A program made the position numbers and the translations under genes. From sequence record MN445185.1: a stretch of 64,000 nt of DNA, one strand, 5' to 3'. Shown one piece after another: positions 25,393-64,000 of this stretch (position 1 is the stretch's first letter; the number at the start of each line of letters is the position of its first letter). This DNA comes from Escherichia phage vB_EcoM_EC001. The notes beneath the pieces are model-generated. The model made no database searches. It saw nothing but the letters and a program-made list of their open reading frames with translations, and was not told where the DNA came from.

Positions 25393-25437
25393 ATGGCAAA
25401 CTTTGTAAAAAGTAAACTCGCTCGTGAATCTGTCGAA
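25393..25437 (+). repeat. direct repeat, copy 2
   Basis: See copy 1. Confidence 0.8.
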
Positions 25438-26652
25438 GGCGCAGGCACTGTCGTTCCAGATGGTATCGAGCTGCCGGCTGAGTCCGTGGAAGGTACTCTG
25501 GCTGACATCGAGCATGACACCAAACCGATCGACCAGCTGGACGCAGAAGCAGACGTGCTGGCAGAAGACGGTGACGAAACTGATGCACAGCTGGATGCAG
25601 TTGATGCTGCTGAAGCTGCCGCTGACGGTGAAGGTGAAGATGGCGAAGAGCCAATGGAAGTGGAAGAAGATATGCCTGACGATGCTGCTGAGCAGCTGGA
25701 CGTTGCGCAGGAATCTATCCGTAAACGTTGGGCATTCGACCACCGCGTAAGCGTTGCGCAGGAATCTTACGGTGCACGTAAGCGTCGTCAGGTTGCTCGT
25801 GAAAGCCTGTGGGAAGATATCAAAGCCTTCCTGAAGCGCATCTACGAGTGGCTGAAAGAGCAGGGCCGTAAAATCAAAGATCGCTGGCTCAAGTTCAGCA
25901 ACCAGGGTAAATCCATTCAGGCGCGTGCTAAGAAATATGACGCTGCGCTGTCTGGCCTGGGCAAGCAGAAGAAAGACACCGTTTCCGGTGGCTTCATCAA
26001 GAACCTGACCTCTAACGGCAAGTTCCTGGGTGACAACCTGCAGGTGCTGAAAGAGCTGCTGGCTAACATCGGTGGCGTTTACAGCATGCAAGAAGACGTC
26101 GTTCGTGAAGCAACTGTAATGGTAACTTCTATTGAGTCTGGCAAACACGTTGGCGGTTTCGCTGCAGCGGTTAATAAAGCAGTTTCTGGTAAGTCCGGCG
26201 ATCTGCAGCTGCTGGGCAACCAGATCGGTAAAGCTGACGTTAAAGTCAACGGTGACGACCTGGAAGCATCCTTCACTGTTATCGATGCAGAAGGCAGCGT
26301 AGAGCAGTCCGTAGCGACTCCTTCTCTGACCACCCTGAGTGGTCTGGTGGCGTTCTTCAATCAGCTGGGTAAAGCTGTGGAAGAAAACGTGAAAGCGTAC
26401 CACAAGAACAACCAGGCGCAAGAGAAGTACGAGCAGGCTATTGACAAGCTGCTGAAGCGTATCGACAGCGTGAAGATCGACGACAACGCCGAGCTGACCA
26501 ACAACGTACGTGTTGCTCGCCGTGCTATCACCATCGCGAACCAGTTCGTTTCCTGGACCGAACGTTGCGTTGCAACTGGCCAGAAAAACCTGATCGCCGG
26601 TGTTAACGGCTACATCAGCGCCGGTATCGGTGCTTATGAAAAGGCTAAGTAA
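25393..26652 (+). CDS. abundant virion protein candidate, paralog B (419 aa)
   Basis: Same N-terminus MANFVKSKLARESVE, shared VAQESIRKRW and C-terminal GYIxAGIGAYEK; AGAGGA SD. Confidence 0.8.
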   Translation: MANFVKSKLARESVEGAGTVVPDGIELPAESVEGTLADIEHDTKPIDQLDAEADVLAEDGDETDAQLDAVDAAEAAADGEGEDGEEPMEVEEDMPDDAAEQLDVAQESIRKRWAFDHRVSVAQESYGARKRRQVARESLWEDIKAFLKRIYEWLKEQGRKIKDRWLKFSNQGKSIQARAKKYDAALSGLGKQKKDTVSGGFIKNLTSNGKFLGDNLQVLKELLANIGGVYSMQEDVVREATVMVTSIESGKHVGGFAAAVNKAVSGKSGDLQLLGNQIGKADVKVNGDDLEASFTVIDAEGSVEQSVATPSLTTLSGLVAFFNQLGKAVEENVKAYHKNNQAQEKYEQAIDKLLKRIDSVKIDDNAELTNNVRVARRAITIANQFVSWTERCVATGQKNLIAGVNGYISAGIGAYEKAK

Positions 26653-26663
26653 TTAGTCTGGCG

Positions 26664-26703
26664 AATCCCCCACTTCGGTGGGGGATTTACCCTTTCTTTT
26701 TTT
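26664..26703 (+). terminator. rho-independent terminator
   Basis: AATCCCCCAC-TTCG-GTGGGGGATT hairpin, T-run after a 5-nt gap. Confidence 0.65.
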
Positions 26704-26720: not shown

Positions 26721-26746
26721 ATTTCAGATATATATTACCTAGGTGA
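26721..26746 (+). promoter_or_regulatory. phage promoter-like motif, class I (ATTTCAGATATATATTACCTAGGTGA)
   Basis: 26/26 identical to 35839..35864; just downstream of a terminator, 43 nt before ATG 26789. Confidence 0.6.
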
Positions 26747-26788
26747 GATTGCATTGGTAATCTTTTAACCGACTATCACTTAAGGAAT

Positions 26789-27550
26789 ATGAAAATGAAA
26801 ACTATCAATCTGCTCACTCTGGCTAATGGCTCTATCGAACGTAACGAAGACGACGGTGCTATCCTGCAAGCAACCAACGGCTTTAAAGTTATACTGTCCC
26901 CAATTCAATTCACAGGCTTACAAGTCTGGCTGCGCGAAATCAACAAACGCAAACTGCCGCGTCGTATGGCGGTTGGCGACCTGCTCTTTACACTGGATAA
27001 CGTTGACGGTGTTAAACCGGAACTGTACGAAGTTCAGTACAAAGCCGCAGTCGATACACTGCGACTGAAGAAAGGGGAAGAAATCAAATTCATTCCGGTG
27101 ACCTATAATGGTAACACTTACCTGCAGATGGAAGACACTCCGTTCGCTGCGCACGTCACTGACACTGCTGTTGAACTGGTCATTGCCATTGGTCTGGTTG
27201 CGACTCCGGCGGTACTGGAAGTCAGCGAAGATCCACTGCAGGATTTCGGTACGCTGTTCGAAACCATACTGGGTGGCACGAAGCTCGGGAACATCACCAA
27301 GGTCATCCGCCGTATTCCGATTCGGAATGCGCAGCCGAAAGTGATGACGCTGGCAGAAAGCATGACGGAACACCCGGAGCTGACTGCTGAAGAAATTCAG
27401 GCGCAAGAAGAAGCAATTGAAGAAGAACGTCAGAACGCCCAGCGTGAAGCCATGAAGCCGTTCCGTGGTTTCCTGGATGCTATCTTCGACTGTGCGAACT
27501 CGCTGATGAAACCGGTTGAAGTGAAAACCGCTGAAGAACCAGCAGCGTAA
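26789..27550 (+). CDS. hypothetical protein (253 aa)
   Basis: First gene after the promoter motif; TAAGGAA SD. Confidence 0.7.
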   Translation: MKMKTINLLTLANGSIERNEDDGAILQATNGFKVILSPIQFTGLQVWLREINKRKLPRRMAVGDLLFTLDNVDGVKPELYEVQYKAAVDTLRLKKGEEIKFIPVTYNGNTYLQMEDTPFAAHVTDTAVELVIAIGLVATPAVLEVSEDPLQDFGTLFETILGGTKLGNITKVIRRIPIRNAQPKVMTLAESMTEHPELTAEEIQAQEEAIEEERQNAQREAMKPFRGFLDAIFDCANSLMKPVEVKTAEEPAA

Positions 27551-27608: not shown

Positions 27609-28154
27609 ATGAAACGTGTCAATCTTAAAGATATTATTAGCGTAAGTAACGATAAATCATCACCCCTTTGGGATGAGGTTACTACGCTGCAATTTAGTAC
27701 CAGTGTCATGACAATTCCACGTCCAGTTATGATTGGTCTAGGTGTGTTTATTTTAGAATGTGACCGTCGCTCAGCAGGCACGCACATTCTAACGTACGGT
27801 GGGTACGAGTTTGTCGTCGAAAGCGAACTTAACAAACATTGCTCAGAGGGCATCATCGGTCTTTGGAAATACTTAATCGATGCGGGATTGTCCGACATGT
27901 CTAAAGTCTGTAGTCACGATTACGGTAAGTTGGAGCATTTTGTTCGTCGTAACGGTGAGCGTGTTCCGGTGACGATTGATGGTTACCAGACCAAAATGGT
28001 CACCGCGCCTTACAGCGCTGAGGGGATACGTGCAACGCTTTACATTCGCCAGACGCTCGTACGCGATGACCTGTTAGACGAAGCAGAGCAAACTCTACAT
28101 GGTCGTGTTGTGAACCTCGCACCGTCTTACGACGCGCAGCGTATGGTTCAATGA
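27609..28154 (+). CDS. hypothetical protein (181 aa)
   Basis: CTTAAGGAGTATT SD context; followed by terminator. Confidence 0.7.
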   Translation: MKRVNLKDIISVSNDKSSPLWDEVTTLQFSTSVMTIPRPVMIGLGVFILECDRRSAGTHILTYGGYEFVVESELNKHCSEGIIGLWKYLIDAGLSDMSKVCSHDYGKLEHFVRRNGERVPVTIDGYQTKMVTAPYSAEGIRATLYIRQTLVRDDLLDEAEQTLHGRVVNLAPSYDAQRMVQ

Positions 28155-28160
28155 TTTAAT

Positions 28161-28190
28161 AAGGTGGCCTAACAAGCCACCTTCTTTTTT
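28161..28190 (+). terminator. rho-independent terminator
   Basis: AAGGTGGC/GCCACCTT hairpin then T6. Confidence 0.7.
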
Positions 28191-28201
28191 GGGATTGTGT
28201 G

Positions 28202-28573
28202 ATGACTGATAAATTTAAATTTGAGATGACGCCAGAAACCGCAAACGTAGAACCGCAGATTCGCCTCCGTGTACGAGATGACGAATACTGTCTAGCGATA
28301 GTTGAAGAAGACCTGGCAGAGGCCTTGTTGCTGCTCGGCGACAGAGAATGGCTTGGCACGCTAACTATTAGGCTTAAGAGGCCGTTGGTTGGTAGTGGGA
28401 TGTTTGCAGGTTGCTGTACGAACAGTCTGTTGGTCGATGTGGATGCCAGAACGGTATCACTGTCGGTGATTCTGGACTATCCGGTGACATTCTCGTATAG
28501 CCGTCTTGAATTTAGTCGCCATTTACGCCACGCAATGAAAGAATTATCTAAAGCCCGTAGGAGCAAACCGTGA
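28202..28573 (+). CDS. hypothetical protein (123 aa)
   Basis: ATG 28202 (GTG 28199 also possible); stop overlaps DHFR start. Confidence 0.6.
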   Translation: MTDKFKFEMTPETANVEPQIRLRVRDDEYCLAIVEEDLAEALLLLGDREWLGTLTIRLKRPLVGSGMFAGCCTNSLLVDVDARTVSLSVILDYPVTFSYSRLEFSRHLRHAMKELSKARRSKP

Positions 28574-29121
28574 AACTCTCTATTATCGTCGCGATGGACC
28601 GCAACAATGCCATCGGTAAAAACAATGAACTGCCGTGGCGTCTGCCTGCCGACCTGGCTAACTTTAAGGCAATTACCACAGGGAAGAACGTTATCATGGG
28701 TAGTAGGACCTGGGAATCGTTAGGTTGTCGTCCTTTGCCTAACCGCGGCAACTTAATTGTTACTCGTAACCCAGAAGGGTACATCAATGGCCGGGAAGAA
28801 CACACGGACATGCGTTTGGTGACGTTTCACACGAGTATTGATTTAGCCATCAAAGCTCTGGAACGTATCGAGAAAGATACCGGAAAAGAGCAAGAGGTGA
28901 TGATTATTGGTGGCGCATCAGTTTATCAACAAACCCTCGCTCGTGCGGATCGTATTTATCTATCGCGTATTGACATCGCTGTTGAAGGTGCCGATGCTTT
29001 CTTCCCAGAAATTGACAGAGATGTTTTTCAAGTCGATTACACCATGACCCATTTACCCGACGGCCAGAAACACACGCACCGTTGGACGTATCAAATTTTA
29101 AATCGTATCGCTGGAGTTTAA
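28570..29121 (+). CDS. folA: dihydrofolate reductase (183 aa)
   Basis: Matches DHFR family signatures (NAIGKNNELPW, LPADLANFK, VIMGSRTWES, PLPNRGNLIVT, MIIGGASVY, IDIAVEGADAFFPE); GTG start with AGGAG SD. Confidence 0.9.
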   Translation: MKLSIIVAMDRNNAIGKNNELPWRLPADLANFKAITTGKNVIMGSRTWESLGCRPLPNRGNLIVTRNPEGYINGREEHTDMRLVTFHTSIDLAIKALERIEKDTGKEQEVMIIGGASVYQQTLARADRIYLSRIDIAVEGADAFFPEIDRDVFQVDYTMTHLPDGQKHTHRWTYQILNRIAGV

Positions 29122-29122
29122 A

Positions 29123-29452
29123 GTGGAAAAGAAATCTGTTAAAGGTTACGTGATGGAAGTAACCCCAAAAGCGGCTGAACTGGCGAGAGAATATACCGGA
29201 TGTATCGTGCCACTGACCTCAATCGTGGTGTGTGAGGGTTCCTTCTATCTCATCTTCGGCAGTAATGAGCCGGTCTATGCGTACATCGATGACCCTGATC
29301 AAGTTACAGCCCTCTCTATTGCGATGGGTAAAATGGTATCAGACAAGATGATTGAATTCGTTGTCGGGAAAACGATGGACATTATCCGCAATCCGGTTGG
29401 ACACAGCGGAATAAAATGTAAGAAGTGGCAGCTAGCTTGGCTGGCACATTAA
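29123..29452 (+). CDS. hypothetical protein (109 aa)
   Basis: GTG 29123 with GGAG SD right after the DHFR stop; alternative ATG 29153. Confidence 0.55.
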   Translation: MEKKSVKGYVMEVTPKAAELAREYTGCIVPLTSIVVCEGSFYLIFGSNEPVYAYIDDPDQVTALSIAMGKMVSDKMIEFVVGKTMDIIRNPVGHSGIKCKKWQLAWLAH

Positions 29453-29479: not shown

Positions 29480-30070
29480 ATGCTTAGTGAACGTGCGCCC
29501 CGTTTAGAAGCGGCGGTATTGAAAATTGAACGTGTGAATATCAAATTGTTATCGAACGATGTTGGTCGGGCATCGTACAGTGACTTATGGAGTATCCCCG
29601 CACCACCGCGTACGTTGGTGGTGAACTGGTTAACGAATCGTTTGGGCTCATGCGATGTTAAAGCCAAGGATGTCGTACTAACGCTACCTGACGGCAAAAC
29701 AACTACCGGCGATGTGTTGATTGCCAGTGGTTCTAAATTGCGTATGGGCGATATTCGCTTGGGTGAGTCCTATCTTCCGGACGGTATGCGACCTATGCCG
29801 ATTGGCGAGGTAGAAAACCGAATTCTGGAAAAAGAAAGAGTGCTGGCGTTCATACGCCGCCCGCCGGATAGCACGGTGTCGTTTAAGCAACGTAAACCGG
29901 CTGCAGACAACACACCCGTTGTCGAGTGGCTCGAAAAGTATTTTGGCGAATATGGCATCAGTCCTGATGAGGTCATTCTCATCAACGGCCACGCCATGAT
30001 GCCGTTTAAGCCCAGCCCGTATTACACGATGGGACAACTGCGCGCTTCCTTCAAAGGGAAAGCACGCTAA
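29480..30070 (+). CDS. hypothetical protein (196 aa)
   Basis: CTTAAGGAGTATT SD context; followed by terminator. Confidence 0.7.
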   Translation: MLSERAPRLEAAVLKIERVNIKLLSNDVGRASYSDLWSIPAPPRTLVVNWLTNRLGSCDVKAKDVVLTLPDGKTTTGDVLIASGSKLRMGDIRLGESYLPDGMRPMPIGEVENRILEKERVLAFIRRPPDSTVSFKQRKPAADNTPVVEWLEKYFGEYGISPDEVILINGHAMMPFKPSPYYTMGQLRASFKGKAR

Positions 30071-30076
30071 AGTGTG

Positions 30077-30104
30077 GGGGACTTCGGTCCCCTTTCTTTT
30101 TTTG
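30077..30104 (+). terminator. rho-independent terminator
   Basis: GGGGAC-TTCG-GTCCCC hairpin then T-run. Confidence 0.8.
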
Positions 30105-30144
30105 CGTTTTAGGCCAGTGATATGACTACAACGAGGGACAGCTA

Positions 30145-35838: not shown

Positions 35839-35864
35839 ATTTCAGATATATATTACCTAGGTGA
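35839..35864 (+). promoter_or_regulatory. phage promoter-like motif, class I (ATTTCAGATATATATTACCTAGGTGA)
   Basis: Identical to 26721..26746; 52 nt upstream of ATG 35916. Confidence 0.6.
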
Positions 35865-35915
35865 TAGAAGACAATCTATCAACTCAATCGACTATTAATC
35901 TAAAGGAGTATTGCC

Positions 35916-63291: not shown

Positions 63292-64000
63292 ATGTCAAAA
63301 CTCAATAAAGCAGCAACCAAAGAATGGCTTTCCGTACCTACCGCAGATGGTCAGTATCGCTACGTATTCACGTATGACGAAAATGACCTGACGGCAAAAG
63401 GTATTCCGCACATGTTAAGTCACAAACTGATTAACAGCGTGACCGGTGCCACCTTAGTAGGTTCCGGCGGAAGGACAATCTTTTGTGCCCCCAGTTGGGA
63501 TCAAACTGAACTGACCAAGAAAATGCTCGGTGAACTCCGGGCGGTTTCCGCACGTCTGTTCTTTAAGCTGATTGCCAGAAAACCGGCGCTATGGGATGCA
63601 TGGTCTCAACACAATCTCGAGGCATTGCGTGGGGAGTGTCTGAATTACGTATTGGTCGAAGAAGTGATTGATAACTTCTTCGCTAACGTGATGAAAACCG
63701 AACGACTGCGTAAGCCGAACACCGACGGTTATTCGTTTGTCTCCGTTAAGAGCAGCGAACTGATTCGGGGTGAGTTTGCAGGGCATGTCCTTTCGGTAAC
63801 TCGGAACCTGAGTTTCTTTGGCCAGCCTTTCAGTGAGCCAGTTGTTCAGGTAACTTATGATTTCCGTTTACCGTTTACTGTTCGGAATGAGTTTGACCCA
63901 GGTCAAGTTTCGTTGAAGTTTTTATATCCTCTCCAGTCATGGCCGTTATTGAAGAGGTTCTTAGCTGAGCCCCGTGTAGCTGCGGTGCTGCAAGCGTGGA
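63292..64000 (+). CDS. hypothetical protein, 3'-truncated by window edge (>=236 aa)
   Basis: ATG 63292; frame translated by hand to the window end with no stop; absent from the ORF track. Confidence 0.6.
   Translation, partial: MSKLNKAATKEWLSVPTADGQYRYVFTYDENDLTAKGIPHMLSHKLINSVTGATLVGSGGRTIFCAPSWDQTELTKKMLGELRAVSARLFFKLIARKPALWDAWSQHNLEALRGECLNYVLVEEVIDNFFANVMKTERLRKPNTDGYSFVSVKSSELIRGEFAGHVLSVTRNLSFFGQPFSEPVVQVTYDFRLPFTVRNEFDPGQVSLKFLYPLQSWPLLKRFLAEPRVAAVLQAW

Follow-up and report, generated by a model that had tools for sequence, protein, structure and literature searches.

Few auxiliary nucleotide-metabolism genes are as widespread in large phages as those for dihydrofolate reductase (DHFR), with homologues in 1113 phage records, and a further example carries little weight as a discovery. 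In bacteriophage T4, the frd and td genes are adjacent, and the phage DHFR (Frd) serves a thymidylate synthase of the ThyA type that is likewise encoded by the phage. The expression of T4 frd peaks early (PMC13478754). Amongst the jumbo phages of the Chimalliviridae, DHFRs of one family are found in phiKZ (PHIKZ004, the gp4 protein), PhiPA3 (FolA), and the Erwinia phages Machina and Asesino. In phiKZ the gene belongs to the first operon, at the left end of the genome, where it is the last gene of a multi-gene plus-strand unit that is closed by a hairpin and then followed by a TATATTAC motif. DHFR, thymidylate synthase, and thymidylate kinase are shared genes of the SPN3US-like phages (PMC6614189), and according to reviews every jumbo phage that encodes its own RNA polymerase has a conserved AT-rich motif ~10 nt 5' of its early start sites (PMC7598289, PMC11512511).

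The window analysed here, a stretch of 64,000 nucleotides of Escherichia phage vB_EcoM_EC001 (sequence record MN445185.1), is ~98% identical to the Salmonella jumbo phage SPN3US, which makes its source an SPN3US-like phage (Seoulvirus). Its DHFR gene (28570-29121, plus strand) is the same gene as SPN3US gp58 (SPN3US_0058 / YP_009153352.1), with 98.2% nucleotide identity and one non-synonymous difference, and SPN3US and the Seoulvirus orthologues have the same DHFR neighbours, upstream motif, and terminators. Since this SPN3US counterpart is annotated ('putative dihydrofolate reductase'; JN641803; the SPN3US genome of Lee et al. 2011), the gene is already known. An apparent loss of the gene from some near-identical records, whose number fell from ~33 to 22 when the protein was used for searching, was dismissed, as the SPFM assemblies align the gene in 9-10 pieces, probably as a result of sequencing indels.

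The gene is an uninterrupted open reading frame of 183 codons with a GTG start and a TAA stop. An earlier note on this DNA had seen DHFR signatures throughout the protein and had proposed a profile search and an alignment of the active-site residues; both were carried out, and both bear it out. The Pfam profile DHFR_1 (PF00186) matches with E=1e-46 and 159 bits, against a cut-off of 25, and is covered over its full length (positions 2-159 of 159), PHROG 316 ('dihydrofolate reductase') matches at 5.6e-51, and a PDB search matched 174 DHFR sequences (best 6e-31), a level of similarity that chance could not produce. T4 Frd is not among the best 60 of these 174 PDB matches, and no close sequence relationship to it was seen. 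The likeness to Escherichia coli FolA (42% identity over 177 residues, E=1e-40 with BLASTP; the FolA query sequence is identical to PDB 1ddr_A) runs end to end along the profile and includes the catalytic aspartate and the folate- and NADPH-binding residues. In the alignment, the catalytic D27 of E. coli corresponds to D28 of the phage protein and the Pro-Trp of the Met20 loop to P22-W23 (E. coli W22 becoming W23); D28 and P22-W23 are invariant in all six aligned sequences (five phage DHFRs and FolA), as are most of the other mapped active-site and NADPH residues. Amongst the folate-binding positions (E. coli L28, F31, I50, L54, R57, I94, Y100, and T113, corresponding to phage L29, F32, L51, L56, R59, I113, Y119, and S132), the sole changes are I50 to L and T113 to S, both conservative; R52 of FolA, of the same active-site/folate-binding group, is R54 in the phage protein. 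The NADPH-binding elements G43, T46, and G95-G96 are retained as G44, T47, and G114-G115, so that G114-G115-A-S-V-Y119 is the counterpart of FolA G95-G96...Y100, and the supporting residue D122 is retained as D142.

Across six SPN3US-like phages, the gene has a dN/dS of 0.03-0.11, and in view of this purifying selection and the intact residues a pseudogene or decayed copy was rejected. It is an intact, ordinary gene of the FolA type, and its sequence predicts NADPH-dependent reduction of dihydrofolate, the activity classed as EC 1.5.1.3. The protein did not reach the cut-off of the NCBIfam equivalog model for enterobacterial type 3 DHFR (NF008037; 124 bits versus 168), and by the NCBI criterion it is a diverged relative and not an equivalog of that family. 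The expected fold, with an eight-stranded sheet and four helices, is drawn only from homology to solved DHFRs; a single-sequence AlphaFold2 model had a mean pLDDT of 38 and a pTM of 0.30, values too low for it to be of use.

The start of the gene differs from that given in several database records. In the GenBank and RefSeq versions of SPN3US, and in several other records, the coding sequence begins at an internal ATG eight codons (24 nt) downstream, giving a protein of 175 aa as compared with the 183 aa considered here, whereas MET_P1_082_240 annotates the gene from the GTG. A Shine-Dalgarno sequence, AGGAG, can be read directly at 28559-28563 (plus strand), 6 nt 5' of the GTG, and inspection of the sequence before the annotated internal ATG revealed no AGGAG-like site. 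At the codon homologous to the GTG, Machina, Asesino, and SPAsTU have ATG and JN03 has TTG; Met9 is not conserved in these four phages, and the first eight residues of the 183-aa form match the N-terminus of FolA. Because of the AGGAG, the homologous start codons, the non-conserved Met9, and the FolA-like N-terminus, GTG 28570, from which the earlier note also began the gene, appears to be the better start. The SPN3US GenBank/RefSeq coding sequence would thus be short by its first eight residues, which we take to form the first beta-strand of the FolA structure, and the corrected start is a practical gain of the analysis. The stop codon of the upstream gene, gp57, overlaps the DHFR start codon (GTGA), and the annotations of Machina, Asesino, and SPAsTU show an identical 4-nt overlap; this arrangement suggests that translation of DHFR is coupled to that of gp57.

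Compared with E. coli FolA, the phage protein is 24 residues longer, with insertions of ~9 residues after P66, ~7 after A84, and 1 before R52 (phage R54), and it carries N31 in place of W30 and S132 in place of T113. The two longer insertions presumably lie in surface loops of the adenosine-binding subdomain of FolA. The DHFRs of phiKZ, PhiPA3, Machina, and Asesino have all three insertions at the same positions, although phiKZ gp4 is only 35% identical to the protein described here. Because of the insertions shared with phiKZ gp4, the change of W30 to N, and the constant coupling to gp57, DHFRs of the chimallivirus type could conceivably have a phage-specific partner or altered inhibitor or regulatory properties (e.g., intrinsic insensitivity to trimethoprim), a suggestion to which we give little credence; if it held, the phage could keep making dTMP when the folate metabolism of the host is blocked. 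In a related reading, which we judge improbable, the enzyme would be Dfr-like rather than a plain FolA, and its main value would be natural insensitivity to trimethoprim or to folate limitation on the host side. One SPFM2 record is labelled 'dhfrIII: Dihydrofolate reductase type 3', DfrA3 is the second-best NCBIfam model, and W30, replaced by N31 here, is to our understanding a site of trimethoprim-resistance mutations in FolA. However, the best NCBIfam model is that of the ordinary chromosomal type 3 FolA, all models of trimethoprim-resistant Dfr proteins fall far under their cut-offs (the best, DfrA3, with 115 bits versus 350), and P21, A26, D27, L28, and I94, which we take to be the other classical resistance positions of FolA, are unchanged. 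Membership of a trimethoprim-resistant Dfr family (DfrA or DfrB-type) was rejected, as none of the NCBIfam cut-offs specific to these families was reached.

No thymidylate synthase was matched among the open reading frames flanking DHFR, as the earlier note had remarked, and a tblastn search of the whole window with SPN3US ThyA returned nothing (best E-value 2.3), so that a synthase hidden in the window was rejected. The expectation that the partner enzyme would be encoded elsewhere, and the accompanying advice to look for further nucleotide-metabolism genes, proved well founded in the 98%-identical reference SPN3US, the present phage being known from the window alone: SPN3US encodes a ThyA-type enzyme at 197633-198649 (PF00303, E=1e-111), ~139 kb from DHFR, and a thymidylate kinase (PF02223) just beyond the position where the window ends. 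The roles are analogous to those in T4, but the adjacent frd and td genes of T4 contrast with the distance between DHFR and ThyA in SPN3US. The most likely task of the DHFR is to regenerate folate for the phage-encoded thymidylate synthase while the DNA is being replicated. The ThyA-type enzyme would convert dUMP to dTMP, oxidising methylene-tetrahydrofolate to dihydrofolate, the phage DHFR would return the dihydrofolate to tetrahydrofolate, and together with the phage thymidylate kinase the two enzymes would keep dTTP supplied during many rounds of replication of a 240-kb genome.

The assignment of DHFR to an operon in the earlier note agrees with a block of plus-strand genes lying between a promoter-like motif at 26722 and a terminator at 30076, in which DHFR comes fourth, 1.8 kb beyond the motif. 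The block opens with gp55 (26789-27550; PHROG 18643), which RefSeq starts at the second ATG (26795), followed by gp56 (27609-28154; PHROG 12369) and gp57 (28199-28573; PHROG 9893). Downstream of DHFR are gp59 (29123-29452; PHROG 17656), whose start may be GTG 29123 or, as in the SPN3US annotation, ATG 29153, and the last gene of the block, gp60 (29480-30070), which matches PHROG 23313 over its C-terminal half only and is an accessory gene missing from most SPN3US-like phages. All of these homologues are on the plus strand, and the matches of gp55, gp56, gp57, gp59, gp60, and gp61 are confined to PHROGs of unknown function, with zero matches to Pfam or NCBIfam; a PDB search with gp57 and gp59 was also without any match. 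A scan of the whole window against Rfam at the gathering threshold gave 0 matches, and no inverted repeats of at least 12 nt were found, the hairpins described here being shorter.

Both ends of the block are marked by intrinsic terminators on the plus strand. The first (26663-26688; 11-bp stem, CUUCGG-type loop, and T-run; MFE -22.4 kcal/mol, z=-3.0) ends the gene for an internal head protein (25393-26652; Pfam phiKZ_IP match, 5e-54) and is conserved in Asesino, SPAsTU, and Machina. The second, which the earlier note had placed at 30077, is a real hairpin at 30076-30093 (GGGGGAC-UUCG-GUCCCC(U), then TTTCTTTTTTT), with a 7-bp stem, a UUCG loop, and an MFE of -15.5 kcal/mol (z=-3.1), a stability that 0 of 200 shuffled sequences reached, and it is conserved in SPAsTU, Asesino, Machina, and SPLA3.

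Virion structural genes lie downstream of the block. DHFR here and in the Erwinia phages lies between head-protein genes, a location that differs from that in phiKZ and that could point to a protein serving mainly as a virion component. T4 Frd was historically claimed as a baseplate component. The presence of a DHFR in T4 virions is reported in literature to which PMC13478754 refers (its reference 30). For the present phage such a role is highly improbable, as the terminator-promoter pair upstream and the terminator downstream set the block apart from its late neighbours, purifying selection on the catalytic residues is strong, and gp58 goes unmentioned in the main text of those papers on SPN3US virions and head assembly that were consulted. 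A virion DHFR like that claimed for T4 was rejected for want of any evidence.

The promoter-like motif of 'class I' (TTTCAGATATATATTACCTAGGTGA), noted earlier at 26721, is real and occupies 26722-26746 on the plus strand. An identical second copy of this 25-mer occurs at 35840 (0 expected by chance), and Machina and Asesino have kept the motif at the corresponding site. In SPN3US, ATATATTAC has six copies, all on the plus strand and all intergenic, and the wider family GATA[TG]AT[AG]T[TC]A[CT] has 18 copies on the plus strand and 0 on the minus strand (~0.44 expected), nearly all of them intergenic. A short hairpin (26745-26765, plus strand), which would be a stem-loop in the 5' leader or else an inverted repeat resembling an operator, directly follows the motif; a hairpin of ~7 or more bp follows the motif in all nine copies tested, with similar spacing and differing stem sequences. 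In the first 50 kb of phiKZ, the TATATTAC core was found upstream of genes seven times in forward orientation and never in reverse, and the genes concerned include PHIKZ054, for which an early-promoter motif has been reported (PMC8244752).

Like the early promoters of phiKZ, the SPN3US motif is AT-rich and conserved, contains TATATTAC, is strictly strand-specific and intergenic, and usually stands just after a terminator and before small genes of unknown function (PMC7598289, PMC8244752, PMC11512511). Unlike them, it has a longer consensus, (T)CAGATATATATTACYTAGGTGAG, and a second sub-class, GATAGATATTATCT. A sigma-70 promoter scan returned 9 sites versus 10.4 expected, without enrichment and hence giving no hint of host-type promoters, and a full-text literature search for TATATTAC gave only unrelated papers among the matches listed. 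The motif at 26722 is a candidate early promoter for the virion RNA polymerase, and the 'early' label of the DHFR block is suggested by its resemblance to the phiKZ TATATTAC core and by the kind of genes that lie downstream.

One further element, overlooked by the earlier note, complicates the picture of a simple operon. Between the motif and DHFR, immediately upstream of gp57, lies a terminator-like hairpin (28161-28183, plus strand; 8 bp, 7-nt loop, then CTTTTTTGGG) that is weak when taken alone (MFE -12.3 kcal/mol, z=-1.6, with 13 of 200 shuffles folding as well). SPAsTU and Machina have a hairpin and a T-run at the equivalent place with a different stem sequence, and because the position is conserved despite these differences the element is argued to be functional; it probably acts ahead of gp57 and DHFR as an attenuator or a leaky terminator. 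Much of the transcription that originates at 26722 could end there. Given this hairpin, the 'operon' is either a single unit whose internal terminator leaks or a pair of units.

In the case of two units, transcripts from 26722 would end at the hairpin and cover only gp55 and gp56, and gp57, DHFR, gp59, and gp60 would be transcribed by a non-virion RNA polymerase from an unrecognised middle or late promoter, so that DHFR would not be early. The six T's and the hairpin are aptly placed for such an end, and the consensus sequences of the phiKZ middle and late promoters are so short or weak that the sequence alone does not reveal them (PMC7598289). No recognisable promoter was seen between the hairpin and gp57, however; the gap between the T-run and the gp57 start is only 15 nt long, and the relatives share nothing there but the hairpin and T-run. 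The modest stability of the hairpin, equalled by some of the shuffles, and the Asesino gp73/gp74 junction (a 9-nt spacer), where no hairpin was seen, also argue against two separate units, a reading that appears rather unlikely.

With a single leaky unit as the preferred arrangement, DHFR expression probably needs read-through of the internal hairpin. Transcription would most likely start from the 26722 motif, which would be the SPN3US counterpart of a phiKZ early promoter and be recognised by the RNA polymerase packaged in the virion, and the transcripts would partly pass the weak hairpin at 28161-28183 and stop at the strong terminator at 30076-30093. Translation of DHFR would begin at GTG 28570 behind the AGGAG, coupled to the upstream gene. 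Taken as a whole, the combination of DHFR identity, a role in the thymidylate cycle, and this expression model is very probably the best explanation of the locus. The comparison yields a sequence-level catalogue of a likely early-promoter family in SPN3US-like phages, with a hairpin after each copy tested, and offers a concrete transcription-unit model for a phage that serves as a genetic model of the nucleus-forming jumbo phages.

The open reading frame at 28570-29121 on the + strand (183 open codons, GTG to TAA) matches Pfam DHFR_1 over its whole length (E=1e-46, profile positions 2-159 of 159; 159 bits against a cut-off of 25) as well as PHROG 316, 'dihydrofolate reductase' (5.6e-51), and a PDB search matched 174 DHFR sequences (best 3tq8, 6e-31; E. 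coli FolA ~1e-28), bearing out the earlier note's claim of DHFR signatures throughout the frame. By BLASTP the protein is 42% identical over 177 residues to FolA, the E. coli dihydrofolate reductase (query sequence identical to PDB 1ddr_A), and residues were mapped from this alignment together with a six-sequence alignment. Failure to align with the active site had been named beforehand as evidence against the gene, and the residues do align: the catalytic Asp27 of FolA corresponds to D28 in the phage protein, Pro21-Trp22 to P22-W23, Leu28 to L29, Phe31 to F32, Gly43 to G44, Thr46 to T47, Ile50 to L51, Arg52 to R54, Leu54 to L56, Arg57 to R59, Ile94-Gly95-Gly96 to I113-G114-G115, Tyr100 to Y119, Thr113 to S132, and Asp122 to D142. 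The roles of these residues are established knowledge on E. coli DHFR, and only the alignment was computed here; judged by it, the function-defining residues are all present. A dN/dS of 0.03-0.11 among six SPN3US-like phages indicates strong purifying selection. At the level of sequence, the phage protein is an intact FolA-type DHFR under purifying selection.

Compared with FolA, the phage DHFR is 24 residues longer, has insertions of ~9 residues after FolA Pro66, ~7 residues after Ala84, and one residue (Cys53) before Arg52, and carries Asn31 in place of Trp30. The two larger insertions presumably belong to loops on the surface of the adenosine-binding subdomain, clear of the Met20, FG, and GH loops. 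The DHFRs of SPAsTU, the Erwinia phages Asesino and Machina, and phiKZ (gp4) carry the three insertions at matching positions, so these are a clade feature, not damage. The nearest NCBIfam model, the ordinary chromosomal 'type 3' FolA, is matched with 124 bits, under the equivalog cut-off of 168, while membership among the trimethoprim-resistant Dfr proteins is ruled out by scores far below the cut-off of every NCBIfam model for them (best DfrA3, 115 vs 350). These profile scores describe a FolA-type enzyme that has diverged and is not among the recognised resistance determinants.

The 4-kb stretch around the gene is 97.9% identical to the Salmonella jumbo phage SPN3US (Seoulvirus; JN641803 / NC_027402) and 95-98% identical to ~30 further SPN3US-like phages; near DHFR, the window coordinate equals the SPN3US coordinate minus 29568. 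The homologous SPN3US gene is SPN3US_0058 (gp58), which carries the annotation 'putative dihydrofolate reductase'. In about eleven assemblies of SPFM phages (LR535901, LR535903-LR535908, LR535911-LR535913, LR535917), the alignment to the DHFR region breaks into 9-10 short pieces at ~97% identity, and most of the annotations call the gene only 'hypothetical protein'; this fragmentation looks like the product of indel-rich assemblies rather than real gene decay.

The GTG at 28570 is a better start than that of the SPN3US GenBank/RefSeq CDS, which begins at an ATG 24 nt downstream (Met9 in the long numbering; window 28570-28596, SPN3US NC_027402.1 / JN641803.1 58138-58162). An AGGAG sits 6 nt ahead of the GTG, and inspection of the sequence upstream of the internal ATG found no comparable site. 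The GTG shares 4 nt with the end of the preceding gene, whose stop codon it overlaps (GTGA). Machina, Asesino, and SPAsTU are annotated with an equal 4-nt overlap and have ATG as the homologous codon; in JN03 this codon is TTG, so a valid initiator occupies the position in every case. Where the long form has Met9, Machina, Asesino, and SPAsTU carry Thr, Val, or Cys. In the alignments, residues 1-8 correspond to FolA residues 1-7, which form the first beta-strand, and the long form is already annotated in the related record MET_P1_082_240. By this comparison the GTG is the conserved start, with a plausible ribosome-binding site and translational coupling to the gp57 homologue. The internal ATG is also used in the SPLA3, SaP7, and JN03 records, cutting off eight N-terminal residues. 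The gp59 homologue could start at either of two codons (window 29123-29155): GTG 29123, 2 nt past the DHFR stop, is used in MET_P1_082_240 and ATG 29153 in SPN3US.

The earlier note had placed the gene in a promoter-proximal early operon driven from a class I motif. The gene preceding this motif (25393-26652) encodes a phiKZ-type internal head protein (Pfam phiKZ_IP, 5e-54). Genes for subunits of multisubunit RNA polymerases are present in SPN3US, which is therefore placed among the phiKZ-like phages, in which transcription is carried out by their own virion and non-virion polymerases (PMC7598289). The 25-mer TTTCAGATATATATTACCTAGGTGA at 26722 has an identical copy at 35840 (0 matches expected by chance), and ATATATTAC occurs in the SPN3US genome in six copies, all on the + strand and intergenic, most of them directly after a terminator and each followed by a conserved-leader gene. 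The looser pattern GATA[TG]AT[AG]T[TC]A[CT] is found 18 times on the + strand and 0 times on the - strand of SPN3US (~0.44 expected), nearly always between genes, and falls into two sub-classes, 'class I' (GATATATATTACYTAGGTGAG; window 26727 and 35845) and a second class (GATAGATATTATCT; window 42672, 42870, and 63176). Asesino (class I form) and Machina (second form) keep the motif at the orthologous site, each time after the head-protein terminator. The first 50 kb of phiKZ contain the TATATTAC core in 7 forward and 0 reverse copies, always upstream of genes, one of which precedes PHIKZ054, a gene with an early-promoter motif at its primary start site (PMC8244752). RNAP-encoding jumbo phages each have a conserved AT-rich element ~10 nt upstream of early starts that is read by the virion polymerase (PMC7598289; PMC11512511). 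Sigma-70-like sites show no enrichment (9 vs 10.4 expected). The class I motif is likely an early promoter, and we infer its early timing and start site.

Nine motif copies were folded (six of class I from SPN3US, SPN3US 4428, and the orthologous ones from Machina and Asesino), and each has a hairpin of ~7 or more bp behind it at a similar distance (window 26745-26765 and 35863-35885; SPN3US 94262, 114009, 165710, 223300, and 4450; sequences L008 at ~2810 and L009 at ~2318). The stem sequence varies among the copies, which suggests that structure rather than sequence is conserved, and the hairpin may represent a stem-loop at the 5' end of early transcripts or an operator-like inverted repeat.

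The head-protein gene is closed by a terminator hairpin at 26663-26688 (-22.4 kcal/mol). The terminator claimed at 30077 is confirmed as a stable hairpin at 30076-30093 (GGGGGAC-UUCG-GUCCCC then a T-run; z=-3.1, 0/200 shuffles fold as well), kept in all relatives examined (SPAsTU, Asesino, Machina, SPLA3). Overlooked in the earlier note was a third hairpin with a T-run (28161-28183) that separates the gp56 homologue from the gp57 homologue, and so also the promoter from DHFR. Taken alone it is weak (-12.3 kcal/mol, z=-1.6), but SPAsTU and Machina have a hairpin and T-run at the matching position with a different stem sequence, which argues that it is functional. A terminator kept at this place would also suit a division into two units, with DHFR under an unrecognisable middle or late promoter; given the weak fold, and with no motif conserved against relatives in the 15 nt between the T-run and gp57, we regard this arrangement as unlikely. 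One early unit of six genes (the gp55-gp60 homologues) with a leaky internal terminator is the most economical reading, and the hairpin is possibly an attenuator that sets how much of the distal, DHFR-containing genes is made relative to the first two. DHFR does lie downstream of the motif, but as the fourth gene.

None of the flanking ORFs matches a Pfam or NCBIfam family, and an Rfam search gave no matches. The block ends with the gp60 homologue (29480-30070, 196 aa), which SPN3US, Escherichia phage Lh1B, and the window possess and most SPN3US-like phages lack; the terminator directly follows gp59 in SPLA3, and Asesino has a longer homologue (355 aa). Just past the block terminator, at 30104-30144, CAGTGATATGACTAC lies ahead of the 500-aa gp61 homologue (start 30145). 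It is conserved in the window, SPAsTU, Asesino, and SPLA3, and Machina keeps the CAGTGATATG core. CAGTGATATGACTAC includes TATG, the core of late promoters in phiKZ (PMC7598289), and is a candidate late promoter.

The absence of thymidylate synthase from the flanking genes holds for the whole window, where tblastn with SPN3US ThyA found nothing. As anticipated, the partner enzyme is probably encoded elsewhere: the reference genome SPN3US has a ThyA-type thymidylate synthase (197633-198649; PF00303, E=1e-111) ~139 kb from DHFR. ThyA, unlike ThyX, yields dihydrofolate, so DHFR is a logical companion. The suggested check for other nucleotide-metabolism genes adds a thymidylate kinase (SPN3US 93524-94147; PF02223) just past the window's right end and an annotated MazG nucleotide pyrophosphohydrolase (SPN3US 200971) that matched no Pfam family. 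The window ends (63293-64000) within the homologue of SPN3US 92653-93411, and the reference kinase gene would start ~160 nt beyond; another class I motif follows that gene at SPN3US 94243.

There are 1113 phage records with a DHFR homologue. DHFR, thymidylate synthase, and thymidylate kinase are listed as shared genes of SPN3US-like phages (PMC6614189), and the first two are among the most conserved jumbo-phage genes (2026 review, PMC13282480). With the caveats on timing, gene order, and the internal hairpin, the original interpretation is supported. The virion polymerase would transcribe the block soon after DNA entry, and gp57 and DHFR would be translated in coupled fashion. The finding is an ordinary one, a phage auxiliary metabolic gene that is already annotated, whose product would recycle the dihydrofolate produced by the phage ThyA, a cycle that, with thymidylate kinase, may keep dTTP supplied for replication of the 240-kb genome.
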